Shown here: positions 1,969 through 36,094 of the stretch, one piece after another
How positions within the stretch are numbered: the stretch's first letter is position 1
Layout of the letters: each line of letters opens with the position of its first letter
NCBI GenBank assembly: GCA_046726415.1
Contig: JBKPAK010000142.1
Location: 1-45,413 of the forward strand
Direction of reading: 5' to 3'
DNA from: Candidatus Methylomirabilota bacterium
GTDB taxonomy: Bacteria; Methylomirabilota; Methylomirabilia; Rokubacteriales; CSP1-6
DNA: 45,413 bases
The notes under the pieces: model-generated
Told to the model about the DNA's origin: nothing
Seen by the model: the letters and a program-made list of their open reading frames with translations, nothing else
Databases searched by the model: none
Position numbers and translations under genes: made by a program

Positions 1969-1986
1969 ATCGTCACCTGCGGGTCG

Positions 1987-3591: not shown

Positions 3592-3637
3592 AACTCCCTC
3601 CTTGCGGGCAGGCCCGAGCGGCGCATGCCGCCACAAT

Positions 3638-3685
3638 CCTTCCGGGGGGGACTCGGAAGGGGCCGTCGAAGCCCCTTCGACGGCC
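3638..3685. repeat. Intergenic double hairpin / REP-like palindrome between the two SBP genes
   Basis: CCTTCCG..CGGAAGG followed by GGCCGTCGAAG-CCC-CTTCGACGGCC. Confidence 0.7.
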
Positions 3686-5292
3686 TAGCGGGCGCGCGTC
3701 ACATACTCCCAGTTGTGAAACCCCATGTGGCCGGGGATCAGCGGCCATTCCCCCACCTTCGGCCCCACCCCGGCGATGGCATGGGCGGCCCCGATGGCGA
3801 CGCCGGGGACGTACTCGTAGAGCCAGGGTCCCAGTTCCTCGCGCATGATGCGCACGCGCTCCGCGTGGTTGGGCTGGATGGCGAGACGGTCGATCAACTC
3901 GTCCAGCCTGGGATGCTCCATGAAGAGATTCAGGGCAGCCTTGCTATGGCCCCCTCGGATCATGACCTCCCAGGGTTCGGGAGCGACCAGCGGAGCGGCA
4001 TACGCCAGCGTAACTCCCGCGTAGGCTCGCGCCCGGAAGTCCGCCGAGAACACCGCCCGGTCAACCGGCCGCCGCTTGACCTTGATGCCCACCTTCTCCC
4101 AGTACGTCGCTACCGCCTCGCCGACGTCCGGGAGATAGCCTCGCCCCGGCCACGCGGTGAGGTTCATGGTCACCTCGAAGCCGCTTGGATAGCCGCCGTC
4201 CGCCAGCAGCGCCTTTGCCTTGGCTGGGTCGTAGGGCAACGGTTTCTTCAAGGCTTCAGTGGCCCACGGGTCGTTGGGGTACGTCATCCAGGAGCCCACC
4301 ACGGTTCCCAGCCCGCCGAGCACCCGCTGCATGATGGCCTGCTTGTCCACCGCCAGGTTGAGCGCCAGGCGCACCTTGCGGGCTCGTTCCGCGTCGGGCT
4401 GCGCCCACGGCACCTTGGGATCATAGGTGGGCTTGGTGGGCCATTGCCCGCCCAGGATGACGTAGACCCACGACACGTTGGGCATGAGGAGCGTCCGTAC
4501 GCCGACCTTTTTCAGTTCCTCAACGTATTCGCCGCCGATCTCGATGACGTCGACGCTGCCCGCGCGGAGCATCGCCATGCGGGTGGCCGGCTCGGGCACC
4601 TTCAGCATCACCAGGCGCTTGAAGTTGGGCGTGGCCCGCCAGTGGTTCTCCACCGCCTCGTACACGATGCGATCGCCGCGGACGTGCTCCACGAACTTCC
4701 AGGGACCGGTGGCCACCGGATTCCGCTCCGCGCCTTGCTCGCCTGCGGTCTCGATGTGGTGCTTGGACTGGATAAAGGCCGACGACGCGAACAGCCCCTG
4801 GGTCACCTTGTTGCCGAACACCACCGATGGCTTGTCGAAGCGCACGGTGATGGTGTACCGGTCCTCGACTTCCATGCTCTTGATCTGCCGGAACTCCGGC
4901 GCCAGGGAATTGGCCGAGCCTTCCTTGGCGACGGAGGCGAAGGTGAACTTGACGTCTTCCGCCGTGACTTCACCGCGGCCGCCGTGGAAGTGGACACCCT
5001 TGCGCAAGTAGAACGTCCAGGTGCGGCCGCCGTCAGCGACCTTCCAGCGCTCCGCGAGCATGGGACTCAATTCGCCGGTCTTGGGGTCGCGAGACAGGAG
5101 ATTCTCGTACATGGGCTTGAGGACTACATCCTCGGCCCCGACGTAGAGATAGGGTAACCAGCGCTCGTTGCCGAACGTGGCGACGGCCACCGTCAGCGTC
5201 CCCTCCGGCTTGGCCGCTTCCCCCGAGGCACCGGCGAGAGCCCACAGAGCGGCCGTGGCGATCATCGTGGCGATCCAGAGCGGTCGACTCAT
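3685..5292 (-). CDS. ABC transporter substrate-binding protein, family 5 (copy 2, tandem paralog)
   Basis: Start MSRPLWIAT after AGGAGG SD; long stretches identical to the 1987-3591 protein. Confidence 0.92.
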   Translation of the reverse strand: MSRPLWIATMIATAALWALAGASGEAAKPEGTLTVAVATFGNERWLPYLYVGAEDVVLKPMYENLLSRDPKTGELSPMLAERWKVADGGRTWTFYLRKGVHFHGGRGEVTAEDVKFTFASVAKEGSANSLAPEFRQIKSMEVEDRYTITVRFDKPSVVFGNKVTQGLFASSAFIQSKHHIETAGEQGAERNPVATGPWKFVEHVRGDRIVYEAVENHWRATPNFKRLVMLKVPEPATRMAMLRAGSVDVIEIGGEYVEELKKVGVRTLLMPNVSWVYVILGGQWPTKPTYDPKVPWAQPDAERARKVRLALNLAVDKQAIMQRVLGGLGTVVGSWMTYPNDPWATEALKKPLPYDPAKAKALLADGGYPSGFEVTMNLTAWPGRGYLPDVGEAVATYWEKVGIKVKRRPVDRAVFSADFRARAYAGVTLAYAAPLVAPEPWEVMIRGGHSKAALNLFMEHPRLDELIDRLAIQPNHAERVRIMREELGPWLYEYVPGVAIGAAHAIAGVGPKVGEWPLIPGHMGFHNWEYVTRAR

Positions 5293-7288: not shown

Positions 7289-8938
7289 CTATAACCCTCC
7301 TTGTTCGTCGACAGAGACGGTGTTCTGGTACGTGCAGCCCATGATTCGCCAGTAGCCGTTGGTTTCGCCACCGACGACCACGATGTGGATATCCTCGCGC
7401 CGGAACATCGGAATCAGCTCGTCTGGGGCGGCACGGAGCTTCGACGCCCACGGCTCCTCGCCGAACGTGGCCCGCGGGTAGATGTAGTTCTGGACGAGCT
7501 GGTAGTCCCAGTACTCGCCGGCCGGCATGCGGGCGGTGTCGTAGAGCCAGTCCACCAGGGCCTCTTTCTTGGTGAAACCGCCCCGGTCGATGAACTGGCG
7601 CGCCGCGATGGGGTCGAGCAGCAGGGTCGGCGGCCCGTGAGGGTCCATGCCGCGCAGGAGATTGCGGACGTGCTCTCGCCAGTGTTTCTCCCGCAGTCCC
7701 AGCGTGAACGCGGTCGAACGGCAGCCGGTGAAAACACTCACCGTGCTGACGTCCGGCCTGAAGCCCCGCTGCACGTGGAAGGGCTCCCACGGGCTCCGCT
7801 CCTCGTTCTCCGCGAAGGTGAGGCTGTTGTACGCGTAGTTGTTGCCCTGGTTGCCCATGTAGCTGAGCCCGGGGACGGACCCGCCCTGGAGGTTCTGGGA
7901 CAGAAGGCCGTAGGCGCGGCCGATGGTGGCGTTGGCGTGGTTGTATGGCCCCATGGCGCCGGTGCCCGAATTCATGCCGATGGCGTGGCGGATCGGACCG
8001 TTCACCACGGCCATGGTGGCCACGGCACTGGAACTGCTACCGCGCGCCGTCACCCCGGTCGCGGCCAAGGCCAGAATCACGGGGAAGTACTCGGGCCGCG
8101 CCCCCGCCATCACCGCATTCACCGCCACCTTCTCGACGGTGTATTGCCAGTATTCGCGGAAGTGGGTCGAGCGCATCCGGCCGACGACCTCGTCGGGCTT
8201 GCGACGCGTCGCTGCCAGCATGGCCGCCACGCGCTCCTCCGTGGGGAGCACGATCGGCAACCCATCCGTCCAGTGATTGTCGAGGAACAGCCGCTCGAGA
8301 TTCTCCGCGGTGTCGGGCACGACGAGCCGCGGCGTCGAGCGGTCGAACTCGAGCGGGCCGAGGTCCGCCTCGGTGAGAGGCCGGGTGAGGCCCCCCACCA
8401 CTTCCTGCATCACCGGCCGCCCCGTGATGGGGTCCTGGCCGTCGACGTAGCTGCGCAGCTCGGCCGGCGTCTTGCCCATGATCGGCTGGGGGACGAACAC
8501 CTGCCGCAGCCCGGGCATCCCACTGACCTCCGCCACCGACCGGACCACGCGGTCGAACTTGTCGGTATGCATGGCCACGGTGGGGACGCCGTACTTCGCC
8601 TCGATTGTCATCGCGTGCGCGGCGACCGCCGGCGCGCAGGTGCTTCAGTGACCGACGCCGAGGATGGCGGCATGCCCCCTCGCCTTGATTTCCTCCCAGG
8701 TCGTCGGATCGTCGTTGAGGTAGACGCTCGAGATCGGCTTCACCACGGTCCGCACGCCTGCCATGTGCTCGGCGAACCACGCCTGCATCTGCCGCAGGAA
8801 GACATCCGAGTCGTCGAACCGGCAATCCACCAGATAGATCGTCTTGCCATCGAGCGCCGACAACCGCGGCGCGAGCGAATTCCGCGTGACCTTCGGCGCA
8901 AACCCCACCGGGTTCAGAACCGTGAGCGTGTCCCCCAT
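7289..8938 (-). CDS. UGSC-type selenoprotein (549 aa; Sec encoded by TGA at 8645-8647, UxxC motif)
   Basis: Continuous 1650-nt frame reading GVGH-TGA-STCAPAVAAHA-MTIE; hairpin just 3' of the TGA; C-terminal part has DGLPIVLPT, EKVAVNAVMAG and ANATIGRA motifs. Confidence 0.85.
8622..8638 (-). promoter_or_regulatory. Putative bacterial SECIS hairpin
   Basis: UGCG-(CGC bulge)-CGGC-[GGUC]-GCCG-CGCA; the stem starts 6 nt after the UGA, the G-led apical loop starts 18 nt after it, and the 3' arm extends to about 8616. Confidence 0.6.
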
Positions 8939-9216
8939 CGCCGAGCCTCCCCTGAAACGATCCGTTCCTTGGAGCTGCCATCGCGCCAGCGCATCGGACC
9001 CAGCTTCTCACGCCTCGCGGACGAGCCCCGGTACGATAGCACGCCGGTCCGCACGAGAGCGGCGACCCGGAGCGTTGCGCTCGCCTGCCGGCGCGACTTC
9101 CCTCTGCCGATGGTCGTTGGCCAATGATCCGCGCTAGACTCGCGGCGCGAAGCCGCCGCCGCGCCGCGCGTGCAGATGCGACGGACGCGAAGGCCGGATG
9201 AAAGGAGAGCACTCCC

Positions 9217-9993
9217 ATGGAGCTGAAAGCACAGGTCGCGATCGTCACCGGCGCGGGCCGCGGCATCGGACGCGCCACGGCCCTCGAGCTGGCGCGCATG
9301 GGCGCCGATGTCGTCATCGCCGAGGTGGACCGCGCCGGCGCGGAGCGCACAGCCGCCGACGTCAAGGCGCTGGGGCAGCGGGTCAGCGTGGTGCCGACGG
9401 ACGTCACGTCGCGCGAGGCCCTTCGGGCGATGGCCGAGCGCACGCGCGCCGAGTTCGGACGCATCGACATCCTCGTCAACAACGCCGGGATCTACCGCGC
9501 GGCGCTGCCCCTCGACATCACCGAGGAGCACTGGGACGCGGTGATGAACGTCAACGCAAGGGCGGTGTTCTTCGCCAGCCAGGCCGTGCTGCCGGCGATG
9601 GTCGCGCAAAAGAGCGGGGCCATCGTCAGTCTCGCCTCCATGGCCGGTAAGATCGGCAGCCGCGGCAATCTGCCCTACAACGCGAGCAAGGCCGCCGTGA
9701 TCAGCATCACCAAGAGTCTGGCCCTCGCCCATGCCGCGGACGGCATCCGGGTGAACTGCGTCTGCCCCGGCTTCGTGGAGACCGACATGTGGTCGGCGGT
9801 CTCCCGTGAGCTGGGTGCGGCGATGGGCCTGTCGCCCGAGGACTTTACCAAGCAGCGCCTCTCCCAGGTGCCGCTTGGACGGATGGAGCGCCCTGAGGAC
9901 GTGGCGAATGTCATTGGCTTTCTCGCCTCGCCCCGGGCGGGTTACATGACCGGCCAGGCCATCAGCGTCGACGGCGGCCTCGTCATGCATTGA
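9217..9993 (+). CDS. Short-chain dehydrogenase/reductase
   Basis: TGAGRGIG, NNAG, YNASK, VDGG; AAGGAG SD. Confidence 0.95.
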   Translation: MELKAQVAIVTGAGRGIGRATALELARMGADVVIAEVDRAGAERTAADVKALGQRVSVVPTDVTSREALRAMAERTRAEFGRIDILVNNAGIYRAALPLDITEEHWDAVMNVNARAVFFASQAVLPAMVAQKSGAIVSLASMAGKIGSRGNLPYNASKAAVISITKSLALAHAADGIRVNCVCPGFVETDMWSAVSRELGAAMGLSPEDFTKQRLSQVPLGRMERPEDVANVIGFLASPRAGYMTGQAISVDGGLVMH

Positions 9994-10186
9994 GCATTCC
10001 CGACGTCCGGGCAAAGTAGCGGCTCGGCGGCGCGCCGAGGGTGCGCTTGAACATCGCGGCGAAGGCAGACGGCGAGTCGTAGCCGACTTCGAGGATGATG
10101 GGATGACCGGCGGCGAGCAAGGCCATCGCGGCGAGCAGCCGCGCCTGCTGTCGCCCATCGGCAAAGGTCAGACCGGTCTCCTCCGC
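9983..10186 (-). pseudogene. AraC-family regulator C-terminal HTH remnant
   Basis: Translates as AEETGLTFADGRQQARLLAAMALLAAGHPIILEVGYDSPSAFAAMFKRTLGAPPSRYF; no start codon or N-terminal domain. Confidence 0.75.
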
Positions 10187-10304
10187 GCAACCGTGGCTTC
10201 CCGATTCGGGGATAAATCCGAAGTCCCGCCGAAGGCGGTGGCACTCCTATTGCGGCAGGGTAGGCTCAATCCTGTCAATCCCACTCTGCCGAGAGGACAC
10301 CAGT

Positions 10305-11234
10305 ATGTCAGACACGTGGCTGCGACCGTTCGAGACCTTGACGCCTTGGCTGACCGCCTTTGCCCTCTCGGTGGGGGCGAGCGCTCTGCGTCTGGTGATC
10401 GTCATCGTGATCGGCCATATCGCCATCAGGTTCGTGCGGATTGGGTTGCAGCGTTTGGAGGGCGTGCTCATCCGGGCCGCCCGGCCCACGGAGGCGACAC
10501 CCGGGGCCACGCAGAAGCGGGTCGTCACGCTCGTCGGGATGATCCAGACCCTTGCCGTCGTGATCGTGTGGTCGATCGTCGTGGTGGTCGGCCTGAGCCA
10601 GGTCGGCCTCGACATCACGCCGATCCTCGCCGGGGCCGGGATCGCCGGGTTGGCGGTGGGCTTCGGCGCTCAAAATCTCGTGCGCGACCTCATCACCGGA
10701 TTCTTCGTGGTCCTCGAGAACCATGTGCGGGTCGGCGACATAGCCGTCATCAACGGGACGGGCGGTCTGGTGGAGATGATCAGCTTCAGGACGATCGTGC
10801 TCCGCGACGAGGCTGGCATCGTCCACGTGTTCCCGCACGGCACCGTCAACACGCTCGCCAACATGACGAAGGACTGGTCGGGTTACGTGCTGGATATCGG
10901 CGTCGCTTACCAGGAGGACACCGACCGCGTGGTCGGCATCATGCGGCAGGTGGCCGATGAGCTGCAGCGGGATGCCGCCCTCGGTCCGGCCATGCTCGGG
11001 CCAATCGAGATCTTCGGCGTCGACAACTTCGGCGACTCCGGCGTGCGGATCAAGGCCAGGCTCAAGACCCACCCCCTCCGCCAGTGGGACGTCGGCCGCG
11101 AATACCGCCGGCGGCTGAAGAGGGTCTTCGATGCCGAGCGGATCCAAATGCCCTTCGCGCACCACTCCCTCTCGTTCAGTGAGGCGAGCCACCCCCTCGC
11201 CTTGCGGATCAGCGAGCCGCCGCCAGCTCGCTGA
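10305..11234 (+). CDS. Small-conductance mechanosensitive channel (MscS family)
   Basis: AGAGIAGLAVGFGAQNLVRD, VGD..I.G..G.V and N.T motifs. Confidence 0.93.
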   Translation: MSDTWLRPFETLTPWLTAFALSVGASALRLVIVIVIGHIAIRFVRIGLQRLEGVLIRAARPTEATPGATQKRVVTLVGMIQTLAVVIVWSIVVVVGLSQVGLDITPILAGAGIAGLAVGFGAQNLVRDLITGFFVVLENHVRVGDIAVINGTGGLVEMISFRTIVLRDEAGIVHVFPHGTVNTLANMTKDWSGYVLDIGVAYQEDTDRVVGIMRQVADELQRDAALGPAMLGPIEIFGVDNFGDSGVRIKARLKTHPLRQWDVGREYRRRLKRVFDAERIQMPFAHHSLSFSEASHPLALRISEPPPAR

Positions 11235-11322
11235 CCGGGAATGTGCCCTTGCCTTGTCCTGCCGTGCGGCCTATGCTGCGTCGGCATCCGGGCCGATCCC
11301 GTACTCGACGACGAGGAGATCT

Positions 11323-12318
11323 ATGCGAAGCATCGATGTCCATGCCCACGTGACGCCCCAGTGCTTCTGGCGAGCCACCGAGAACGGCGGCGACTGGCAC
11401 ACGATCCGACGCGAGCGGGATACGCGCGGTCAGGAGTGCGCTCTCGTCGGCAGCGGCCGGCAGCTCCTCCCGCCGCGCGCCCGCTGGACTCCGGAGGAGC
11501 GCTTGGCCGACATGGACTCGCTCGGGGTCGACGTTCACGTCGCCTCCCCCTACGTGGGGTTCTACAACTATCACCTTCCCCTCGAGGTCGCCCGAGCGAC
11601 GGCGCAGGCCACCAATGACGAGATCGCTGGCATGGTCAAGACTTGGCCGGCGCGCTTCGCGGGGCTCGGGACCCTGCCCATGCAGGACGTGAAGGCGGCC
11701 ATCGCCGAGTTGGAGCGTTGCATGACCCAGCTGGGCCTCAAGGGAGCGGAAATCAACGATCACGTCAACGGCCGCACCCTCGACGAGCCGGAGTTCCGTC
11801 CCTTCTGGAAGGCCGCCGAGCAGATGGGCGCCCTCGTGTTCTTCCACCAGGGCGGCGAGACCTTAGTCAGCCCGCGAACCAAGCGCTATCACCTCCCGAA
11901 CACCATTGGCAACCTCGTCGATCGCGCTGTCACCTTCGCCACCCTGGTATCGGGCGGCGTCATGGACGAGTACCCGAACCTCAAGATCGTGCTCGGTCAT
12001 GGCGGCGGATACACCTGTTACGGGATCGGACGCATGGACCACGGATGGCAGGTGCGCTCGGAGGCGCGTGTCAACATCTCGAAGCCGCCCAGCGCATATC
12101 TTCGTCACTTCTACTACGACTGCATCGTCTACACGGAGTCGGCGCTCCGCTTCCTCATCGATACGGTGGGCGCCGACCGCGTGGTGTTCGGCACCGACTG
12201 GCCGTACGACATGGCGCTCGACTGGCCCGTCTCCTGGATCCTCGGCATGAAATCGCTCGCCCAGGAGGAAAAGGACGCCATCCTCTGGAAGAACCTCGAG
12301 AAGCTCCTGGGTCTTTAG
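11323..12318 (+). CDS. Amidohydrolase_2 family protein (ACMSD-like decarboxylase/hydrolase)
   Basis: IDVHAH, GHGGG, FGTDWPYD; GAGGAG SD. Confidence 0.9.
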   Translation: MRSIDVHAHVTPQCFWRATENGGDWHTIRRERDTRGQECALVGSGRQLLPPRARWTPEERLADMDSLGVDVHVASPYVGFYNYHLPLEVARATAQATNDEIAGMVKTWPARFAGLGTLPMQDVKAAIAELERCMTQLGLKGAEINDHVNGRTLDEPEFRPFWKAAEQMGALVFFHQGGETLVSPRTKRYHLPNTIGNLVDRAVTFATLVSGGVMDEYPNLKIVLGHGGGYTCYGIGRMDHGWQVRSEARVNISKPPSAYLRHFYYDCIVYTESALRFLIDTVGADRVVFGTDWPYDMALDWPVSWILGMKSLAQEEKDAILWKNLEKLLGL

Positions 12319-26394: not shown

Positions 26395-27450
26395 TCACGA
26401 CTTGCCGGTCTTCAGCTGCATACCGAATTTCTTGTTCACAAACTGAACAGTGTACGCGCGCTTCAGGTCGAGGTCGGGGGTGTAGAGGCCGGCCTCCACC
26501 ATGACCGCAAGGAAATCCTTCCAGCGAGCGTCGCTCATGGCGCCGATACCGAGCGTCTCGGCCTCACCCGACTCGACGAGTCCGTTCTTCTTCATGGCCG
26601 CCATGCTGTAGGCGATCTGATCGTCGTTCATGTCGGCGTTGTCTTTCTTGATGAGCGCGTTGGCAGGCCCCGGATCGCCGTAGAGGTAGCCGTACCAGCC
26701 CTCGATCGTGGCGTGCACGAACCGCCGGACGACGTCGGGTTTCTCCTGCACGAGCTTCCAAGATGTCTCGATGGTGTTGGAGTAGCTCGAATAGCCACCG
26801 TCGGCGAGGAGCATGACGACGATGTTGGCCCCGGCCTTCTGCAGCTTGTACGGCTCGCTGGTGAGATAGCCCTGCTGGATGGCCGTCTTGTCGGCGAGGA
26901 ACGGCGCCATGTTGAACGTGTAGGTGCGAATCTGCTCGTCCGAGTAGCCGAACTTCACCTTGAGGAACTGCCAGTAGCCGGCCCTGGCCGGCGGCGCGAT
27001 CATGATGGGTTTGCCCTTCAGCGCAGCGAGGTTGTCGTGGCCCTGGCCGGCGTGGGCGATGAGGACCTGAGGATCCTTCTGGAAGATGCTCCCGACGGTG
27101 ACCATGGGGATGCTGCTCTTGACGTAGTTCAGGGCGCTGAAGGAATTGCTTCCCATGTTGAAATCGATCACGCCCGAGGCCAGCAGCTGCGGGTGGTTGA
27201 TCTGCGGACCACCCATCCGGATCGTCACATCCAGGTTGTACTTCTTGTAGGTTCCCGCGCCGACCGCTTGGTAGTAGCCGCCGTGCTCGGCCTGTGCCTT
27301 CCAGTTCGTGCCGAAGGTGAGCTTGTCGACCGTAGACGCCCGCCCCGGGGCCGCTCCCCACGGGCTGAGTGCCCCGGCCGCCACCAGGGCCGAGGTCGTG
27401 AGAAATGACCGACGGGTCGCCGTCCGCGAGGCCTGAGGCATGTCGCTCAT
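26395..27450 (-). CDS. NMT1/THI5-like ABC substrate-binding protein, Tat-exported
   Basis: TRRSFL twin-arginine signal; [23 protein letters not shown]. Confidence 0.92.
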
Positions 27451-27507
27451 GGGTTTCCTCCTGCGTGAGTCACCTTGCGATCGCCACGCGCCGTCAGGCG
27501 CGACGTC

Positions 27508-27523
27508 AGCACGAGCCGTGCCA
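27508..27523 (-). promoter_or_regulatory. Putative sigma-54 promoter for the NMT1-ABC/deaminase operon
   Basis: TGGCAC-GGCTC-GTGCT with correct -24 GG / -12 GC spacing, about 57 nt upstream of the start. Confidence 0.6.
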
Positions 27524-27914
27524 GTCCCATGTGCGGGATGCACAGGCCACGACGCTCGACCGGCTCGCGACTTCGTGCGCACATGACGACGAGCCGTGCG
27601 AACGGAGTCGGAGCTTGCTCAGAAACGAGGCGCAACCGATCGAGGAATGGGCACCTCGACCGATCGCCGCTTGGCCTGACCCGACCTGGGCGTTGGACAA
27701 TGGTGTCCGTGCGAGGGTATCCACGATGGACTCGCTCCCGACTTTCGATCGACGAGGGCATCGACCCCTGCCCGAGAATGTTCCGGTAACGGTACTCTGG
27801 CTGCTGCCCGTGGGCAAGATCACTGGCCGTGGGCGGGGAGTCCGGAGCAGTCGGTATATCCCAAGACGCGTGACCGAATCCCCCCGGCCCTCGTCATCGG
27901 AAAGGAGAGAGCAC

Positions 27915-28304
27915 GTGAAACGAGAACTTCAGAACCCGCCCGGCGTGCACAAGCCTCAGGCCCACTATTCGCACGTGGCGCAGGCCGGGCCGACGCTCTA
28001 CATTGCCGGCCAGCTGGCCATGGATCCCTCGGGTACCGTCGTCGGCGTCGGCGACGCCGCCGCTCAGACGCGCCAGTGCTACCGAAACCTGGCCGCGATC
28101 CTCACCCACTATGGCGGGAACCTGCGCCACCTGGTGAAGACCACCACCTTCATCACTCACTGGGCGTATCGCCCGCTGGTGGCGGTCGCCCGCGACGAGT
28201 TCTTCCCCGCCCCTCCCTATCCGGCCAACACGCTGGTCGTCGTACAAGGTCTCGCCGAGCCCCATTTCCTGGTCGAGATCGAAGGCATCGCCGTCCTCGA
28301 CTGA
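27915..28304 (+). CDS. RidA/YjgF family protein
   Basis: YSH..AG..LYIAGQ, PANTLV.V.GL, VEIEGIA; AAGGAG SD with GTG start. Confidence 0.9.
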   Translation: MKRELQNPPGVHKPQAHYSHVAQAGPTLYIAGQLAMDPSGTVVGVGDAAAQTRQCYRNLAAILTHYGGNLRHLVKTTTFITHWAYRPLVAVARDEFFPAPPYPANTLVVVQGLAEPHFLVEIEGIAVLD

Positions 28305-28334
28305 CCGGCCACGGATGGGGACGCGCAGGGATTC

Positions 28335-28565
28335 CTAGGTCGGCTTCTCGGGGCCATGCTCTGGGACGAACTGGTCGCGTCGTGTGCTGAACGTGCGGAG
28401 CACGCTCCGGTCTCTTTCGAACGGGAGATTGGCGAGGCCGACGCCCGCGACGTCGTCAGGATCCAGGGGGCCGCAGCATCCTACGACGCGGCCCCGGGTC
28501 AGCTCGACCACCCACAATTTTCCGGATACGCGGTCCTTCCAGAGCTCACGCTTCGTCCCGGCCAT
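28335..28565 (-). CDS. Small hypothetical protein (76 aa)
   Basis: Co-oriented 48 bp after metK; protein-like composition; GCCGP motif. Confidence 0.55.
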   Translation of the reverse strand: MAGTKRELWKDRVSGKLWVVELTRGRVVGCCGPLDPDDVAGVGLANLPFERDRSVLRTFSTRRDQFVPEHGPEKPT

Positions 28566-28613
28566 GGCGAGGCCCTCACGTCTTTGCGGCCATGCCTGAC
28601 CCTCGTGCGCCGC

Positions 28614-29828
28614 CTACGTGAGCGCGCGCGCCGCGCGGGCCAGCTCGGCTCGCTGGCCCTCGCTCTCCCAGGGAGCTTCCAGATCGCGCCGGCCGAAGTG
28701 ACCGTACGAGGCCAGACGCCTGTAAAAGAGTCCATCGTGCTGGGCGGGCAGTTCTCGAAGGCGGAATTGCTTGAGGATTGCCGCCGGCCGCAAGTCCATG
28801 GTCTCCTCGACCACCTTGGCCAAGACGTCGTCCGGTGCCATCCCCGTCCCGAACGTCTGCACCGACACGGTGAGCGGCTGGGCCTGGCCGATCGCGTAGG
28901 CCAGGTGCACCTCGCATTCCCCGCACAGGCCCGCCGCCACGAGATTGCTCGCCGCGTGGCGCGCCGCATAGGCGCCCAGCCGATCGATGTGGTCCGGATC
29001 CTTCCCCGACAGCGCGCCGCCACCGTGCCGGCTATAGCCACCATAGGTGTCCACCGTGTTTTTGCGACCGGTGAGCCCGGCGTCACGTCGCGGTCCGCCG
29101 ACGACGAACGGACCGCCCGGATTCACGAAGAGACGCGCGGTCCGTTCGAACTCGATCCCCACCTCGCCGAGGACGGGGGCCAGGACGGCCTGCCGGATGT
29201 CGTCTTCGAGCTGCCGGCCCGCTCCTGCCGGACCCTTGCGCCCCGCACTCGTCTGGACGCTGATCACCACGGTGTGCAGGCGGACCGGTCGCCGGCCTTC
29301 GAACTCCACGGCGACCAGGGTCTTCCCATCGGGTCCGAGATAGGACAGGGCCTTCGTCCGGCGTACCTCGTCGAGCCGGCGGGCGAGCCGGTGGGCCAGG
29401 GCAATGGGCAAAGGCATGCGCTCGGGGGTATGCGTGCAGGCATAGCCGAAGACGGAGGCCTGGTCGGATGCCACCATGGCGTCCAGCTCGTCTTGGGCGT
29501 CGCCGACCACGCTGCGCGCACCGTGGGGGGCGTGATGCGCCAGACTGGTGATGACGCTGGCGTTCTCCGGGTCGAAGCCTTGCGCCTCGGTGTACCCGAT
29601 GTCTCGAATGACTTTTCGCGCCACATCAGCGGGATCCACGCCGCCCGATGACGTGGAGGTCACGGCCAGAAAGACGAGCCCAGTCGCCACGGCGCATTCG
29701 GCTGAGACTTGCGCCTCGGGGTCGAGGTAGAGAAAAGCGTCCACGACGGCGTCCGAGATCTGATCACAGATCTTGTCCGGATGGCCGCGCGTCACCGACT
29801 CCGAGGTGAACACCGTCCGTCTGGTCAC
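28614..29828 (-). CDS. metK: Divergent S-adenosylmethionine synthetase (MetK paralog)
   Basis: FTSESV..GHPDKICDQISD, GLTGRK..DTYGG, GGGALSGKD, YGHFGR; GTGA overlap with the ATPase stop. Confidence 0.9.
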   Translation of the reverse strand: MTRRTVFTSESVTRGHPDKICDQISDAVVDAFLYLDPEAQVSAECAVATGLVFLAVTSTSSGGVDPADVARKVIRDIGYTEAQGFDPENASVITSLAHHAPHGARSVVGDAQDELDAMVASDQASVFGYACTHTPERMPLPIALAHRLARRLDEVRRTKALSYLGPDGKTLVAVEFEGRRPVRLHTVVISVQTSAGRKGPAGAGRQLEDDIRQAVLAPVLGEVGIEFERTARLFVNPGGPFVVGGPRRDAGLTGRKNTVDTYGGYSRHGGGALSGKDPDHIDRLGAYAARHAASNLVAAGLCGECEVHLAYAIGQAQPLTVSVQTFGTGMAPDDVLAKVVEETMDLRPAAILKQFRLRELPAQHDGLFYRRLASYGHFGRRDLEAPWESEGQRAELARAARALT

Positions 29829-32800
29829 GCTCCCTGCCCTCCTTTCACGAGACGCCTCGCGGCCTTCTCGATCTCGCGCACGACCAAGGGGGCCGTGGCG
29901 CCCGCGGCCACGGCGATCCAGTCGCCGAGGCCGAGCGGGGTCGTGCCGAGCAACCTCCGCAGCACGGGTACGGTCACGCTTGCCGTCTGCAAGGCCAACG
30001 TGCCCCCGAGCGCCCCTATCATGAGGGGATTTTGGCCGAGATCCGCGAGTCCGGAGCGGGTCTCCGAACGACAGCTCAAGGCATGGAGCAGTTGCGACGT
30101 CGTCAGTGTGGAAAAGGCCACCGTCGAGGCCTGGGCCCCCAGCCCATGCCGGGCGGCCGCGATCCCGTACGAGGCCAGGGCAGCCGCGGCCAGGAGCGCG
30201 GCATCGCGGCTGACGCCGAGCAGGGCCCGCCCGGACAGAATGGATTCGTCGCGCTCGCGTGGCTCCTGGAGCATGACGTCCCGCTCGGGAGGCTCCACGG
30301 CCAGGGCGAGCGCGGGCACCACGTCGGACAACAGGTTGATCCAGAGGAGCTGCACCGCGCTGAGCGGACGGGCAACGCCCAGCGCGATGGCGCTGACGGT
30401 GACCAGGATCTCGCTGAGGTTTGTGGCGAGGAGGAAGTTCAGCGCCTTGCGGATGTTGGTGTGGGTCGTGCGCCCCTGCTCGATGGCCCCCACCAGGGAT
30501 GTCAAGTCATCGTCGAGCAGCACGACATCGCCGAGGTCCCGCGCCACGTCGGTGCCGCTCGGCCCCATGGCCACGCCGATGTCCGCCGCCCGGAGCGCCG
30601 GGCCATCGTTGATGCCGTCGCCAGTCATGGCCACGACCTCGCCGCTGGTCTGAAGCGCCTTCACGATCTGGTACTTGTGCGCGGGCGACACGCGCGCAAA
30701 GATGTCGACCTCGCCGGCCAGCCCGCGCAGCGCCTCCGGGGTCAGCGCGGAGAGCTGCGTGGCCTCGACCACCCGGAGGCTGCCGTTGCGTTCGAGGCCT
30801 AGCGTGCGCCCCACCGCGATCGCTGTCCCGCTCTGGTCGCCGGTGAGCATCACGACGCGCATACCGGCGCGTTGGCAGGCCGCGATGGCTTTGCGCACAC
30901 CAGGTCGGATCGGATCGGCCATGCCGACCAGCCCCGCCCATATCAGGTCCTCGTGCTCGGCCGCGCCGTCCTCCGGTTCTCGGAACGCGAGCCCAAGCAC
31001 GCGCATCGCCTGGTCGGCCATGCGCGCGTTGGCAGACAGGATCTCTCGTCGCAGCTTGGGCGTCAGACGCCGGGGCGAACCGTTGGAGCCCAAGAGTTGG
31101 GTCGATCGCTGCAGGACTTCCTCTGGCGCCCCTTTGACGGCAACCAGCTCGTGGCCATCGGCGTTCCGGTGTCGGGTGGCCATCCAGTTTTGACCCTCGG
31201 CGCGGGGTCGGACGGCGGCGAGCGGGAACGCGTTGCGGACCTCTCGATAGTCCAGCCCGTGGCGCCGGGCCGCCTCGAGGAGCGCTCCCTCGGTGGCGCT
31301 GCCGCGGATCTGGGGCGCGTCGGCGGCACCCGCCAGCTCCGCCTCATTGCAGAGCACGGCCACCAAGATGGCCCGGGCCAGCCTTGGATCCGTGTCGTTC
31401 GGCGCCGAGTCGCCGGATTCGCCGCCGGCATCGGTCCGCTCCGCCCGTCTGCCTGGGTCGGCGACGAAGACGCCGTTCTCGAGCGCCCATGCCTGGACCG
31501 TCATGCGGTTCGCGGTGACGGTTCCTGTCTTGTCGACGCAGATGACCGTGGTCGCCCCCAGACTCTCGATCACTTCCAAGCGACGCACGAGAGCCTGCCG
31601 CCGCAGCATTCGATGCATACCGAGGGCGAGCGTGGTCGTCGCCACCGCCGGCAGGCCCTCAGGCACCGCAGCCACGCCGAGCGCGATTGCCGTTCGCGCC
31701 ATCTCGACCAATGACACGCCGCGGAGAAGGCCCAGGCCCAGGGCGAGCCCGCACAGCGCGGTGGTCACGCCGACCAGCGTTCGTCCCATCTGGGTGAGGT
31801 GCGCCTCCAGCGGAGTCGGCGGCGACTCCGCCTTGGCGATCAGGGCCTGGATGCGCCCGACCTCCGAGCTCGATCCGGTCTCGGTGACCACAGCCAGGCC
31901 GGTGCCGTCGCTCACCACGGTTTTCGCGAAGACCATGTTGGTGCGGTCAGCCAGCGGCGTGTCATCCGCATGCGCGACCGCGGCGCGCTTCGCCACGGGC
32001 ATGCTTTCGCCGGTCAGCAGCGATTCGTTCACGAGCAGTCCACCGTCCTCGAGGAGGCGACCATCCGCCGACACTTCGTGGCCTGCCCGCAGCAGGACGA
32101 CATCGCCCGGAACGAGCGTTGCAGCCGGGACGAGGCTGTCTTGCCCGTCGCGGCGCACCAGGGCCGTCGGGACGGCCAGCCGCTGGAGCGACGTCAGGAT
32201 CCGCTCCACGCGGCTCTCCGTGATGTACCCGACCGCGGCATTCACGACCACGACGCCGACGATCACAAGGGCGTCGAAGATGCCGCCGCTCAGGAGCGAG
32301 ACGGCTGCCGCTCCCGCGAGAAGCGCCACCGGCAAGGTGGCCACCTGATCCACGAGGATGCTCATCCGCGATTTGGGCTCAGGGGTGGGCAGGAGGTTCG
32401 CTCCATACGCGGCCAAACGCCTCTCGGACTCCATCCCCGACAGCCCACGGTCTGGGCCGACCTCAAGGTGTGCTGTGACGGCCTCGGCGTCCATGGCGTG
32501 CCAGGGTGTCCGCCGCGCAACCCTGGGCGCACGGACCGGCATCCGCCCACGACGATCGCGCCTGGGGGTGGCCCTCGCCGGGCCGCGACAGCGGGCGATC
32601 TCCACGACGAGCTGGTTCACGGTCACCTGCGTGTCGTCGAAGAAGACGAGCACGGAGCCGGTGACGGGATTGACCCGGACGGACCCTACGCAGACGAGGG
32701 CCTCCAGACGCTCGCTGATGAGCGTGGCGAGCGCGGCAGATCGCCGGAGGCCCGCGACGCGCACTCGGAGCCGGCCACGTACGGCCACCGACAAGAGCGT

Positions 32801-32866
32801 GACCTGCAAAGGATCCGCGCGTGCTGTGGCAGTCATAGGCCGGTCAGCCGCCTCCACGGCGCGCAT
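29825..32866 (-). CDS. P2A-type (Ca2+-like) cation-transporting ATPase with N-terminal HMA-like domain
   Basis: TGES, PEGL, DKTGT, KGAPE, TGD and GDGIND motifs; M5 NLSE and M6 WINLLSD; alternative start 32836. Confidence 0.93.
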   Translation of the reverse strand: MRAVEAADRPMTATARADPLQVTLLSVAVRGRLRVRVAGLRRSAALATLISERLEALVCVGSVRVNPVTGSVLVFFDDTQVTVNQLVVEIARCRGPARATPRRDRRGRMPVRAPRVARRTPWHAMDAEAVTAHLEVGPDRGLSGMESERRLAAYGANLLPTPEPKSRMSILVDQVATLPVALLAGAAAVSLLSGGIFDALVIVGVVVVNAAVGYITESRVERILTSLQRLAVPTALVRRDGQDSLVPAATLVPGDVVLLRAGHEVSADGRLLEDGGLLVNESLLTGESMPVAKRAAVAHADDTPLADRTNMVFAKTVVSDGTGLAVVTETGSSSEVGRIQALIAKAESPPTPLEAHLTQMGRTLVGVTTALCGLALGLGLLRGVSLVEMARTAIALGVAAVPEGLPAVATTTLALGMHRMLRRQALVRRLEVIESLGATTVICVDKTGTVTANRMTVQAWALENGVFVADPGRRAERTDAGGESGDSAPNDTDPRLARAILVAVLCNEAELAGAADAPQIRGSATEGALLEAARRHGLDYREVRNAFPLAAVRPRAEGQNWMATRHRNADGHELVAVKGAPEEVLQRSTQLLGSNGSPRRLTPKLRREILSANARMADQAMRVLGLAFREPEDGAAEHEDLIWAGLVGMADPIRPGVRKAIAACQRAGMRVVMLTGDQSGTAIAVGRTLGLERNGSLRVVEATQLSALTPEALRGLAGEVDIFARVSPAHKYQIVKALQTSGEVVAMTGDGINDGPALRAADIGVAMGPSGTDVARDLGDVVLLDDDLTSLVGAIEQGRTTHTNIRKALNFLLATNLSEILVTVSAIALGVARPLSAVQLLWINLLSDVVPALALAVEPPERDVMLQEPRERDESILSGRALLGVSRDAALLAAAALASYGIAAARHGLGAQASTVAFSTLTTSQLLHALSCRSETRSGLADLGQNPLMIGALGGTLALQTASVTVPVLRRLLGTTPLGLGDWIAVAAGATAPLVVREIEKAARRLVKGGQGA

Positions 32867-33072
32867 AGCAACGGGCTCCGATGCGATCCTCGTCGCGCGA
32901 CAACTGGCGTAATCGCGTGTTCAATTTTTGCCCGCGGAGGATAGCGCCGGCATGTGACCGAGCTGCGACGGAAATGTTACGAGTTGTCGACGCGCTGCGC
33001 GCTCATCACCGCCGTCCGCTCAGGGGCTTCACATCGAGCCTCCTTCGCGCTCCGGCGATCAGCCAGCTTCAC

Positions 33073-33759
33073 TTAGCTCGTCGCCGCCGCCTTCGGCGCC
33101 CGCGCGGATCGCTTCGCTCTCTTCGCGCGGGCGAGCGGACGTCGCTCAGCCTTGGGCACTCGGGCCAACGGAGGTCGCCGAACACCCGCCTCGGCGAGGA
33201 CCGTCTTGATCCCGGCGACGGTCAGGGCACCACGCAGACTCCGCCCGGCCGCCGACCCCATGCGGCTGGCAGCGAAAGCGGCACCCTCCACCGCATCGAC
33301 GGCCAGGGATCCGACATCGGTCCCCACCTCTCGAGTCGCCTGGACGGTGGCCTTGGCGGTCCGCCGGGACAGAGCTCCCACATCTCCGCCCACTTCTTCG
33401 ACGGCATCAACCGTCGCCGCCGCCGACTTCTCGACGGCGTCCGAGAGCTGGCCTCCGATCTCCCTGACGGCCTTGATCGAGCCTTGGACCGTGCCTTTGG
33501 CAAATTGGCCAATGTCGCCACCGATGTCGGAGACGGCTCGAGTAACGCTGCGAGCGGTCGCTACGGCCAAGGAGCCTATCCGGCCTCCGACATCCTCGAC
33601 CGTCTCCACCGCCGCGGTCAGGGTGTTGTGAGCCAGCTGTACGACTCCTACCGTCAGGGCTTCGGCCGCGCCTGCGACGTCCTGAACGACCCGCGTCATG
33701 GGGCCACCGTTCAGCGCCTTCATCGTCGTCGGCCTGGCCGGCATTGCCTTTACTGCCAT
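33073..33759 (-). CDS. 22-aa-repeat amphipathic helical protein with basic Ala/Arg/Lys tail
   Basis: AGGAGG SD; five 22-residue units centred on (D/E)(V/I)G(G/T). Confidence 0.8.
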   Translation of the reverse strand: MAVKAMPARPTTMKALNGGPMTRVVQDVAGAAEALTVGVVQLAHNTLTAAVETVEDVGGRIGSLAVATARSVTRAVSDIGGDIGQFAKGTVQGSIKAVREIGGQLSDAVEKSAAATVDAVEEVGGDVGALSRRTAKATVQATREVGTDVGSLAVDAVEGAAFAASRMGSAAGRSLRGALTVAGIKTVLAEAGVRRPPLARVPKAERRPLARAKRAKRSARAPKAAATS

Positions 33760-33821
33760 CGTTTCCTCCTGTGAGGCCGCGAGATCATCGCGCAGCCATG
33801 TCGTCACCATGATGCAATGCA

Positions 33822-33853
33822 GTCACCGTACGGTGACGAGCAGAGCGCGTCAA
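33822..33853 (-). promoter_or_regulatory. Sigma-70 promoter overlapped by a perfect 16-bp palindrome
   Basis: TTGACG-17 nt-TACGGT; GTCACCGTACGGTGAC covers the -10 element. Confidence 0.6.
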
Positions 33854-34524
33854 GTTACGTTTTGCCCGAAACCGATGTCAGAGGTCGGCTACGCGCTCGA
33901 CGTGGCCTTCCATCTGACCGCCTTGGCCGCCGGGGAAGCTGTTTCGCGGTTCTGCGCTCAGCAGGCGCCTGGACGCACCTCGAGTTCCTGCCCAACATCC
34001 AGCGAAGCACGTGGGGCTGAAGCTCGCGGTCCTTGCCGCAGGCGCCAAACTCGCCAAGTCTCGGCCTGTCGGCGCGTCCGAGCCCCCGAATTTTCGGAGA
34101 GCGGCGCGGCGCTGGCCCGGCCGTCGTCAGTCTCGCCCGGAGGGCACTCACCCGCAACACTGCGGCCACCGGATCGTCACGCGACCGTCGAGCGTGCGAG
34201 CCCGCTCCGTTCCGTTCTGGAACACGGGCGTTCGATTCGAAACCGTTGGGAATCGCGAAACTGCGACGGCCGCGCCGTTATCGCAAGAAGGGTGTGGAGC
34301 AGAGAGACCGATGCCCCGCGTTCTCGTGACGGTTCGCGGGGCTTCGCGCAAACGACGCGATCGCCGACGGATGTCGTGGTTCGCGGTCCGCCCATTGCAC
34401 ACCACCCCGAAGGAGCGGCGAGCGACATCGAACAGAGAGAGACGCAAACGACATACAAGAGAAATCTGAACCGGCGGTGCTGCGGGCCAGGCCCGCGGCG
34501 CTCGACCAACAAAGGAAGGAATGC

Positions 34525-35070
34525 ATGCGAGTCTTTGGACTGGCCGTTGCGCTCGGTGTGTTGGCTCTGTCAGGGTACGCCCTACCGTCGTCCGCCGGCA
34601 GTCCCACGTCGCCGGCGAACAGCTCCCGGGCGATCGAAGGTGTCTGGCGGGGAATCATCACAGGGAGGGAGTTGAACACGGGTAGCGGCGCATCAGCCGA
34701 CACCCTCACCCTGGTCGTCGCGGCCGACGGTACGTGGACGGCCACGAGGGGCAGCGAACGCTGGAAGGGTACGGTGCGGCCGGTTGGAAACGGGTTCGAG
34801 TTCGACGGCACGACGAGCGCTGGTGGCCGGCCCGTCTCGTTTATGCTCCATCGATACGGGCGCGATGGTCTGGGTGGAGCGGTGGTGACCGACACTCAGG
34901 GGCGGCGCACGTCATTGACCGCCGACTTGCGCGCTGTTCCCAGCGCTGGCAGCACCGCCGGCGGCAGCGATAGCTCGGAAGGGAGCGCGTCGCCCCCGAG
35001 TGCTCCGGCCCCGTCGAACTTTGGCCGGACGCCGGGACAGTATCCGGAGATGGGAACCCAGGCGCCGTAG
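34525..35070 (+). CDS. Exported hypothetical protein with a beta-rich domain and S/P/G-rich tail
   Basis: Signal peptide MRVFGLAVALGVLAL; IEGVWRG and DGTW motifs; AAGGA SD. Confidence 0.7.
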   Translation: MRVFGLAVALGVLALSGYALPSSAGSPTSPANSSRAIEGVWRGIITGRELNTGSGASADTLTLVVAADGTWTATRGSERWKGTVRPVGNGFEFDGTTSAGGRPVSFMLHRYGRDGLGGAVVTDTQGRRTSLTADLRAVPSAGSTAGGSDSSEGSASPPSAPAPSNFGRTPGQYPEMGTQAP

Positions 35071-35094
35071 TCAGCGCGACCGCGGCGTGAGGTT

Positions 35095-35120
35095 AGGGGG
35101 CCCCTTTCGAGGGGCCCCCT
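35095..35120. terminator. Perfect hairpin between convergent genes
   Basis: AGGGGGCCCCT-TTCG-AGGGGCCCCCT (11-bp stem); no U-tract. Confidence 0.6.
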
Positions 35121-35122
35121 GG

Positions 35123-36094
35123 CTAGTCTTCGCGCAACTCGGGAATCACCCAGCGCGGGCGACCGCCGCTGGCGACCCGTTGAATGTTGTCGAAGCCGTT
35201 GCGAAAGCGCGCCGTCCAGTTTTCCCACGTGGGCCCGGCCGAGTGCGGAGTGAGGGTGACGTTGGGAAGTGAGAAGAGCGGGTGCGCGGGCGCGGGTGGC
35301 TCCTCGACCATCACGTCGAGGCCGGCGCCGGCGATCCTCCCTGCGACGAGCGCGTCGTGAAGCGCCTGCTCGTCCACGACGGGGCCCCGGCAGGTGTTGA
35401 TGAGGGCTGCGCCCGGCCGCATCAGCGCCAGCTCCCGAGCGCCGATCAGCGTGCGCGTGGTGTCGTTGAGCGGGACGTGCAGGCTCACCACGTCCGAGGT
35501 GCGGAGCAGTTCTTCGAAGAGGACGAAGCGGACGCCGAGTCCGTCCTCCTGATCCTCCGTGAGCCGGAGCACATCGTAGTACTGAACCGCCATGTCGAAG
35601 GCCGCCGCCCGTCGCGCAACTTTCTTGCCGATGTTGCCGAGGCCCACGATCCCGAGCGTGCGCCCGGCCAGTTCGTAGATCGGCGTCTGGGCGAAGCCCC
35701 CCACCAGCCACTTGCCGGCCACCACGTTGTTGTGGTGCCAGACGAGCTTCTTGAGCACGGCCAGGATGAGCATGATGGTGTGCTCGGCTACCGCGATGGC
35801 GTTGGCGCCGCCGTTGTTGGCCACGGGGACCTTGGCCTTGCGCGCCGCTTCGATGTCGACCCGGTCATAGCCGGCGCTGGTGAGCTGGACCAGACGCAGC
35901 TTGGGTGCAGCCCGGAAGAACTCGCCGCCCATCGCGCGGGGCGAACCGAGGTAGTACTCGGCGTCCGCGGCGGCCTCGTAGAACTGTGCAGTACCCTGAT
36001 CGGCCACCGCCAATTCGAAGCCGGCGGGCGTCAACGAGCGGGCGATGTCGAGAATCGATTCGGGAAGTTTGGGACCGAGAAGGATCTTGGCCAC
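35123..36094 (-). CDS. D-isomer-specific 2-hydroxyacid dehydrogenase
   Basis: GLGNIG, SLHVPL, INTCRG, GLDV..EP, TPHSAG. Confidence 0.94.
   Translation of the reverse strand: MAKILLGPKLPESILDIARSLTPAGFELAVADQGTAQFYEAAADAEYYLGSPRAMGGEFFRAAPKLRLVQLTSAGYDRVDIEAARKAKVPVANNGGANAIAVAEHTIMLILAVLKKLVWHHNNVVAGKWLVGGFAQTPIYELAGRTLGIVGLGNIGKKVARRAAAFDMAVQYYDVLRLTEDQEDGLGVRFVLFEELLRTSDVVSLHVPLNDTTRTLIGARELALMRPGAALINTCRGPVVDEQALHDALVAGRIAGAGLDVMVEEPPAPAHPLFSLPNVTLTPHSAGPTWENWTARFRNGFDNIQRVASGGRPRWVIPELRED

Follow-up and report, generated by a model that had tools for sequence, protein, structure and literature searches.

A MetK look-alike apparently coupled to a CoBaHMA-headed P2-type ATPase: a candidate ATP- or triphosphate-handling accessory of a ferrosome-like pump module

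The DNA analysed here (hereafter the window) is a stretch of 45,413 nucleotides from a Candidatus Methylomirabilota bacterium (GenBank assembly GCA_046726415.1, contig JBKPAK010000142.1, positions 1 to 45,413 of the forward strand), and it carries a three-gene unit that is surrounded by unrelated metabolic and transport genes (Table 1). The unit encodes a helical repeat protein, a calcium-type P-type ATPase with a CoBaHMA head (the pump), and a protein with the fold of the methionine-activating enzyme MetK (the look-alike), which is the subject of this study. All three MetK Pfam domains (PF00438, PF02772 and PF02773) were detected in the look-alike, with E-values of 1.8e-53, 3.2e-33 and 1.2e-31, and the TIGR01034 metK equivalog was matched with 389.9 bits against a cut-off of 309.4. 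It is because this cut-off is passed that the automatic name of the protein is S-adenosylmethionine (SAM) synthetase, a name which does not thereby inform on the substrate pocket. The nearest solved structures were mycobacterial and E. coli MetK (E 1.6e-105 to ~3e-93), the identity to the E. coli enzyme was 44%, and a search of the Atlas with the look-alike returned SAM synthase clusters only. An AlphaFold2 model, for which 80 relatives were used as input, had a predicted local distance difference test score (pLDDT) of 88 and template-modelling (TM) scores of 0.84-0.95 to solved MetKs; the gating loop (residues 101-110) was its least confident part (pLDDT 46). The calculated isoelectric point (pI) of the look-alike is 6.2, which makes it acidic. 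The window stretch was present in soil DNA runs only.

The look-alike was aligned with MetK of E. coli K-12 (NC_000913.3) and with the canonical MetK of its own genome, which is encoded on contig C125 (alignment A1). Residues kept with respect to E. coli MetK were GHPDK (H14 and D16), E42, D118, D163, K165, F230, D238, R244, K245, K265 and D271, and the metal, triphosphate and adenosine ligands, together with the catalytic His14, are the same in the two proteins. The replaced motifs were GGEITT, which reads AVTSTS in the look-alike (E55T), KQSPDI, which reads HHAPHG (Q98H, S99A and I102G), GAGDQG, which reads VASDQA, PSKVDRS, which reads PDHIDRL (K269H and S273L), and TGRF, which reads GGPF (R229P). 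Previous studies of MetK, in the available parts of PMC3853416 and PMC1282579, describe the methionine amino group as held by E55 and D238, its carboxylate by Q98 and K269 and its side chain by I102, with D163 and D238 contacting the ribose and F230 stacking on the adenine. At the methionine contacts E55, Q98, I102 and K269, the window protein has T, H, G and H, and in the C125 MetK all methionine, ribose and adenine residues are intact. The initial annotation, made by eye against the E. coli sequence, had reported GHPDK (H14, D16), E42, D238, K245 and K265 as retained and the positions around E55, Q98, GAGDQG, K269 and GRF as substituted; every one of these readings was reproduced in the alignment, no residue was restored by it, and the naming of E55, Q98 and K269 as L-methionine contacts in E. 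coli MetK agrees with the same two sources, as far as they were available. Changes that it had not listed are F262L, GGPMGD to GGPRRD, SEGHPDK to TRGHPDK, and a 6-residue insert close to the C-terminus.

A word-indexed protein search with the look-alike returned 7998 relatives, and a residue census was taken over the best 120 of them (57-100% identity). His269 was present in 120/120 of these nearest relatives, and Glu55 was present in 0/119 of those covering position 55, where N, T, S or H stood instead. K165, F230, D238, R244, K245, K265 and D271 were kept in 120/120, and H14, D16 and E42 in all 118 that cover those positions. Because the same replacements are fixed throughout the 120 nearest relatives, the substitutions in the window protein are not chance. 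The ratio of nonsynonymous to synonymous substitution rates (dN/dS) against the same-genus orthologue was ~0.08 (0.085/1.03). In an exhaustive search of cluster representatives, 1985 proteins were found at E <= 1e-30; among the best 150 of them, the canonical E55/K269 pair was carried by 111, and ~15 formed part of a second group of look-alikes, marked by K269R, D238H and E55R/H. Two further candidates were discarded: a pseudogene was ruled out by the intact frame and the dN/dS value, and a metK copy of a biosynthetic cluster by the lack of any such cluster nearby.

The relationship of the look-alikes to MetK was then read from a quick IQ-TREE analysis (LG+C20) of 78 rows, comprising 36 canonical MetKs of many phyla, 24 look-alikes of type A and 18 of type B, both labels being coined in the present analysis; the tree is unrooted and leaves the order of events unshown. 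A branch of length 0.46 (support 100 in the Shimodaira-Hasegawa-like approximate likelihood ratio test, SH-aLRT) separated all 36 canonical MetKs from the look-alikes, the window protein included. The type A rows formed a clade with support 100, the signature of which is K269H, no E55, G120A, F262L, G237R and a kept triphosphate site; all of these features were found in the window protein. Type B is the sister group, with K269R and D238H, and it includes the Binatia locus and four loci of the window's phylum. Positions conserved in canonical MetK and replaced in both types were G54, E55, Q98, S99, I102, G115, G117, G120, I246, F262, K269 and S273, and those kept in both types were H14, D16, K17, E42, D163, R244, K245, D249, Y251, G252, A261, S263, G264, K265, D271 and R272. 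The canonical residues at 55, 98, 102 and 269 were found in 35-36/36 canonical rows, in 0/24 type A rows and in 0/18 type B rows; likewise, G115, G117 and G120 are invariant in 36/36 canonical rows and replaced in type A. D163, K165, F230 and D238 were each present in 24/24 type A rows; in type B, D238H was found in 17/18 rows, F230 in 6/18 and K165 in 8/18. D118, which is present in 36/36 canonical rows and is kept by the window protein, was found in only 8/24 type A rows. The replacements fixed in type A were H269 (24/24), R237 (24/24) and L262 (23/24). Moreover, the known active-site and gating-loop positions of type A are more basic (E12R, E55N/T, Q98R, loss of D101 and D107, and G237R in 24/24), and this gain is partly offset by K269H and R229A/P, the net shift being ~ +4. 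That the look-alike represents a separate, widespread family of the MetK fold under purifying selection, and is not the SAM synthetase of the cell, is well supported.

The gene neighbourhood was compared among 12 genome loci: ten from the window's phylum (the window itself and nine further genomes), one from a Terriglobia genome and one from a Binatia genome. A P2 pump lay directly upstream of the look-alike, on the same strand, in 12/12 loci. Five of the 12 carry type B; four are placed by the tree, and G108, the fifth, shares 52% identity with the query, as do its two genus-mates. A metagenome scan with a 58-residue piece gave 80 loci, of which 8 held look-alikes, H269 being present in six of these and R269 in two; the pump was upstream in 5/5 assessable ones, the other three beginning at a contig end. 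Over the genome and metagenome loci (12 and 5, respectively), the pump linkage was found in 17/17 assessable loci from several phyla. No adjacent P2 pump was observed at the canonical MetK loci, neither at the 72 from metagenomes nor at the 78 from genomes (0/150 in total), the latter having been taken from a whole-protein genome-contig scan in which 78/80 loci held canonical MetK. The separate ATPase-linked clade that the initial annotation had envisaged is thus borne out, with the look-alikes on their own side of the tree and a P2-type ATPase at every assessable locus; the ATPase in question is the neighbouring ion pump and no activity of the look-alike itself.

The identities of look-alike and pump drop together across genomes (86/83% in G002, 69/62% in G038, 65/59% in the Terriglobia and 51/44% in the Binatia genome), which fits inheritance as a unit. 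The look-alike was detected in 10/251 species genomes of the window's phylum (E <= 1e-110), in 4 of the 41 nearest genomes (G011 being counted among those without it), and, among 401 sampled genomes of the phylum to which the Terriglobia carrier belongs, in the carrier alone; its distribution is therefore sparse and patchy. A canonical MetK was present elsewhere in 11/11 carrier genomes examined (the window's own genome, on C125, and 10 others; G108 was left out of this check). Natural fusions of pump and MetK were also sought: among 120 listed "longer" matches, two combine both domains, and both are singletons. P0280 was rejected since it runs out of frame and resembles a read-through of the overlapping genes, and P0281, a truncated pump joined to a type B look-alike, was not counted. 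In two genomes of the window's genus, the pump is split into several frames (L114 of G002 and L116 of G001), as is the look-alike in G001; these broken frames and the out-of-frame P0280 look like assembly frameshifts, not biology.

Table 1. Features of the three-gene unit, in window coordinates
Feature	Position	Strand	Basis or remark
MetK look-alike (type A), 404 amino acids (aa), GTG start	28614..29828	-	Open reading frame (ORF), Pfam, alignment, AlphaFold2 model
P2-type (calcium-type) P-type ATPase, 1013 aa, N-terminal CoBaHMA/HMA_2 head	29825..32866	-	Pfam
CoBaHMA (HMA_2, PF19991) domain of the pump, residues ~28-88, arginine-rich strand RGRLRVRV	32603..32785	-	Pfam
GTGA overlap of look-alike GTG start and pump TGA stop	29825..29828	-	Sequence read, ORF coordinates
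Shine-Dalgarno-like AAGGAGGG within the pump gene end, ~9 nt ahead of the GTG start	29837..29844	-	Sequence read
Helical repeat protein, ~228 aa from conserved ATG, ORF open to 33810	33073..33759	-	First gene of the three-gene unit
Conserved upstream element AAAACGTAACTTGACGC with TTGACG -35-like hexamer	33847..33863	-	Alignment A2

Translational coupling of the look-alike to the CoBaHMA-headed, calcium-type P2 ATPase appears well supported by the reading of the junction, where AAGGAGGG is the putative ribosome-binding site of the look-alike. The Pfam domains of the pump are E1-E2_ATPase, Cation_ATPase_N, Cation_ATPase_C, Hydrolase and HMA_2, the last with 34.2 bits against a cut-off of 30. 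The pump scored under every NCBIfam equivalog cut-off, so that calcium is no more than a candidate for the transported ion. Residues 1-125 have a pI of 11.96 (~12), no CxxC metal site was visible in the N-terminal sequence, and an arginine motif of the type (V)xGRxRxRV is common to 12/13 aligned pump N-termini. The nearest solved relatives are Listeria LMCA1 (6ZHF, E 1.5e-141) and human SPCA1 (5.4e-141), with which PEGL and the N and D ion-site residues of the pump align; the pump differs from them in an extra basic CoBaHMA head of 120 residues that is covered by no solved structure, and from calcium pumps as a class in falling under the NCBIfam calcium-pump equivalog cut-offs.

The repeat protein consists of ~22-residue repeats with the motif E(I/V)GGD(V/L)G and ends in a very basic tail rich in R, K and P. 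At other loci, homologues of it adjoin either the pump or the look-alike, its AlphaFold2 model is all-helical with low confidence (pLDDT 52), no Pfam family was matched over the cut-off, and the nearest Atlas clusters are unnamed. Ahead of this gene, AAAACGTAACTTGACGC lies ~90 nt before the start and is common to two same-genus genomes; it resembles a -35/-10 promoter with a possible palindrome and may serve as the promoter of the unit. A consensus promoter scan called 0 promoters and left this element uncalled, and its 2 terminator-like sites were at shuffle level. No Pho-box-like array was seen upstream in the window, although no comparison with any PhoB model was made. Between the unit and a divergent gene (34477-35070, plus strand) with a secreted or lipoprotein-like product lies an intergenic region of ~0.7 kb (33811-34476), which has no convincing ORF and no Rfam match and in which only the promoter-like element at ~33847-33863 is conserved within the genus. 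Directly downstream of the look-alike lies a 76-aa ORF (28335-28565, minus strand) with a gene-like third-position GC of 0.81; it has no Pfam match and no homologue in any fetched locus, and relatives have a second repeat-protein gene in its place. Over positions 28000-35200, Rfam gave no match at E <= 1, and PADLOC assigned no defence family to the look-alike, the P2 pump, the repeat protein or the 76-aa ORF.

Fuller clusters were found elsewhere; they run from a stand-alone HMA_2 membrane protein through a DUF5132-like protein and an HMA_2-headed P1B pump to a small ORF, after which come the P2 pump, the look-alike and the repeat protein. According to the pump search, P2 pumps occur in 112/251 genomes of the window's phylum, and in at least 13 of those genomes the pump orthologue covers the CoBaHMA head and no look-alike was detected. 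Eight look-alike-free loci were examined, and the HMA_2 protein, the P1B pump, the P2 pump and the repeat protein were present in 8/8, with nothing between the P2 pump and the repeat protein in any of them. The look-alike is therefore an optional accessory, which needs the module, whereas the module does not need it. Both forms are seen in one genome of the same order (G243), where locus L127 (G243:C30, positions 1585-5097 and 7675-12274) has two CoBaHMA-headed P2 pumps ~5 kb apart; one pump is followed by the look-alike and then the repeat protein, and the other by the repeat protein directly.

Phosphate-related genes stood beside the module in 6/13 loci with flanks. These were PhoX in L005 and L128, a phosphate-selective porin fragment in L127, metallophosphoesterases in L004 and L130, and an N-terminal fragment of polyphosphate kinase in L114. 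When the six phosphate neighbours were used as tblastn queries against the control loci, each matched its own locus alone, which does not amount to a family-level background. In the Binatia locus (L005), which opens with the PhoX gene, two genes follow the look-alike at 8624-10160, one for an ArsA/Get3-like ATPase that includes an HSP20-like domain and one for a further small HMA_2 protein.

With respect to known systems, the look-alike shares with canonical MetK (EC 2.5.1.6; E. coli 1FUG/7LL3 and M. avium 3S82) the three-domain fold and the ATP-side ligands. It differs in the replacement of E55, Q98, S99, I102, K269, GAGDQG, F262 and S273, in its separate clade, in never being the sole MetK among the 11 carriers examined, and in its place behind a P2 pump (17/17 assessable loci, against 0/150 canonical ones). 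Previous work on ferrosome (fez) clusters, in the available part of bioRxiv 10.1101/2020.01.10.902569, has shown that FezB, a P1B-6 ATPase that goes with FezA and FezC, and partner proteins have an arginine-rich RxRxR N-terminus, that FezC consists of an HMA domain and two membrane helices, and that some fez clusters hold a second P1B pump. As far as that text describes them, these clusters have a layout similar to that of the present module, and the likeness extends to the arginine-rich pump N-terminus (RGRLRVRV in the window) and to the stand-alone HMA_2 protein and P1B pump in the clusters of relatives. However, the pump next to the look-alike is P2-type and not P1B-6, the window has the P2 pump only, the P1B pumps of two relatives' clusters are without the FezB motifs D[Y/F]SCA and HNxxT, and the present module is known from genes alone. 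The word "adenosylmethionine" occurs 0 times in the available main text of that preprint, and no MetK-like gene is mentioned in it.

The CoBaHMA domain was described by Benzerara et al. 2022 (PMC8890360), is equated with Pfam HMA_2 (PF19991) in the available part of bioRxiv 10.1101/2024.07.07.602159, and has been proposed to bind anionic partners or lipids (10.64898/2025.12.07.689555). According to the same available part of 10.1101/2024.07.07.602159, CoBaHMA and DUF5132 proteins flank the calcyanin gene ccyA in Microcystis. The clusters of relatives resemble that neighbourhood, as it is described there, in having stand-alone HMA_2 and DUF5132-like proteins, and differ from it in that no calcyanin or GlyZip protein was found at the present module. 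Neither "adenosylmethionine" nor "MetK" occurs in the available texts of PMC8890360, 10.1101/2024.07.07.602159 and 10.64898/2025.12.07.689555. A literature search, which extended neither to supplements nor to the founding paper of the CoBaHMA family (Gaschignard et al. 2024), found no paper on the look-alike family or on its link to the pump.

Evenly balanced, in our estimate, is the proposal that the look-alike is an ATP- or triphosphate-handling accessory enzyme of a ferrosome-like pump module; its database name is probably wrong. A soluble look-alike, probably a dimer like MetK, would still bind ATP-Mg or tripolyphosphate (PPPi) at the conserved site. It might then pass the adenosyl group to water or to some acceptor other than methionine, probably an anion, with release of PPPi or of pyrophosphate and phosphate (PPi + Pi), or it might hydrolyse tri- or polyphosphate plainly. 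By either route, the pump module would be linked, on its cytosolic side, to nucleotide or phosphate status.

Several points weigh against this proposal. The binding or cleavage of ATP or PPPi and the contact with the pump are read from sequence only. SAM synthesis by type A could still occur, given that the adenosine and catalytic residues are kept and that H269, N/T55 and R/H98 could hold methionine. D118 is variable in type A, and K165 and F230 are often lost in type B, so that a function shared by both types, if there is one, may perhaps not be catalysis. Residues 12, 236 and 237 line the pocket only presumably. On the side of phosphate, no phosphate-related gene lies in the window's own flanks, and the link drawn from 6/13 loci, without a family-level background, is a lead and not a finding.

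An adenosyltransferase with a new acceptor is possible, though somewhat unlikely. Here the C5' of ATP would be attacked and the adenosyl group passed to a non-methionine nucleophile, such as an acidic thioether or selenoether or an inorganic anion, and the product would be a new adenosylated metabolite for the pump module. The retention of H14, D163, K165, F230, D238 and all triphosphate ligands in 24/24 type A rows is in keeping with such a reaction, as is the more basic pocket region of type A, and the fixation of the replaced pocket residues themselves (H269, R237 and L262) suggests a defined new ligand. However, the same adenosine binding is impossible in type B, which is equally pump-linked (D238H in 17/18 rows, F230 in 6/18 and K165 in 8/18); moreover, D118 varies even within type A, and no enzyme that uses an adenosylated product is conserved in the cluster. 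The variability of D118, K165 and F230 across types A and B would be accommodated by a non-catalytic pseudo-enzyme, that is, a regulatory or structural subunit seated on the pump or on the pump's CoBaHMA head, where it might sense ATP, SAM or PPPi but not turn it over. Translational coupling and constant adjacency to the pump, the dispensability of the look-alike for the module, as might be expected of a regulator, and the pairing of a very basic pump head (pI ~12) with an acidic look-alike (pI 6.2) point the same way. Nevertheless, we consider this reading unlikely: H14, D16, K17, E42, R244, K245, K265, D271 and R272 are kept in nearly all rows of both types, a degree of conservation not usually expected of a mere scaffold, and the search for natural fusions of pump and look-alike gave none that could be trusted.

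A second SAM synthetase isozyme with an unconventional methionine site, by which SAM would be supplied locally or under special conditions, is distinctly improbable. The passed TIGR01034 cut-off, the presence of all ATP, metal and catalytic residues, and the retention of D238, which contacts the amino group, are what this reading would predict; against it stand the joint alteration of E55, Q98, I102, K269, the gating loop and GAGDQG, the canonical MetK retained in 11/11 carriers examined, the split of the clade from 36 canonical MetKs (support 100), the loss of D238 in type B, and the lack of any SAM-using enzyme conserved in the module. Human MAT2A K289L, equivalent to E. coli K269, is reportedly active on methionine analogues, for which the literature search gave no confirmation; the search for data on the MetK mutants K269M and K289L found nothing. 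In archaeal methionine adenosyltransferases (MATs), according to the available part of PMC3853416, the methionine carboxylate is bound through His and Asn and not through Gln and Lys, and for this reason alternative methionine binding is conceivable in the look-alike as well. It is here that the overall interpretation of the initial annotation, in which the residue losses pointed to a different adenosyl acceptor, a triphosphatase or ATPase only, or a regulatory pseudo-enzyme, holds only in part. Its residue reading and the separate, pump-linked clade stand; the residue loss does not serve as proof against methionine binding, in view of those archaeal MATs and of H269 and N/T55 in the family.

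Returning to the accessory-enzyme proposal, a bolder extension of it, which we regard as quite unlikely, may be outlined. The MetK fold would have been recruited to an undescribed reaction, in which water or an anionic acceptor takes part in the cleavage of ATP at C5' and PPPi or PPi is released on the cytosolic side of a membrane-bounded store of calcium (and metal). The CoBaHMA pump module would build this store, and the repeat protein would coat it. The polyanion might then be the ligand of the CoBaHMA head or a mineral feedstock, and it might switch the store on or off in phosphate starvation. Through its strict coupling to the CoBaHMA-headed, calcium-type pump, the look-alike bears on a wider question, namely whether ferrosome-like or calcium-storing compartments are built by non-cyanobacterial soil bacteria, and whether phosphate starvation is involved. 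For databases, more than 100 sequence clusters are named "S-adenosylmethionine synthetase" although they are without the methionine contacts of MetK, and metabolic reconstructions that count look-alikes as a second SAM synthase are probably wrong. MetK is among the most conserved enzymes known, and a large clade that is under selection, in which only the acceptor pocket is rebuilt and the ATP-Mg-K machinery is kept, provides a natural experiment on the scope of the fold.

Two minor observations were made elsewhere in the window. On the minus strand at 7289-8938, two adjacent ORFs match Pfam UGSC (PF24696) at profile positions 1-92 and 109-159, and they are separated solely by an in-frame TGA at 8645-8647 (context GVGH-TGA-STC); the pair looks like one selenocysteine-containing protein of the UGSC family, which standard gene calling would split. 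On the plus strand at 27405-28304, a 299-aa ORF has a RidA/L-PSP domain in its last 115 residues only, and its N-terminal 180 residues are of non-coding-like composition; the real gene is therefore probably much shorter, and convergent with the look-alike.

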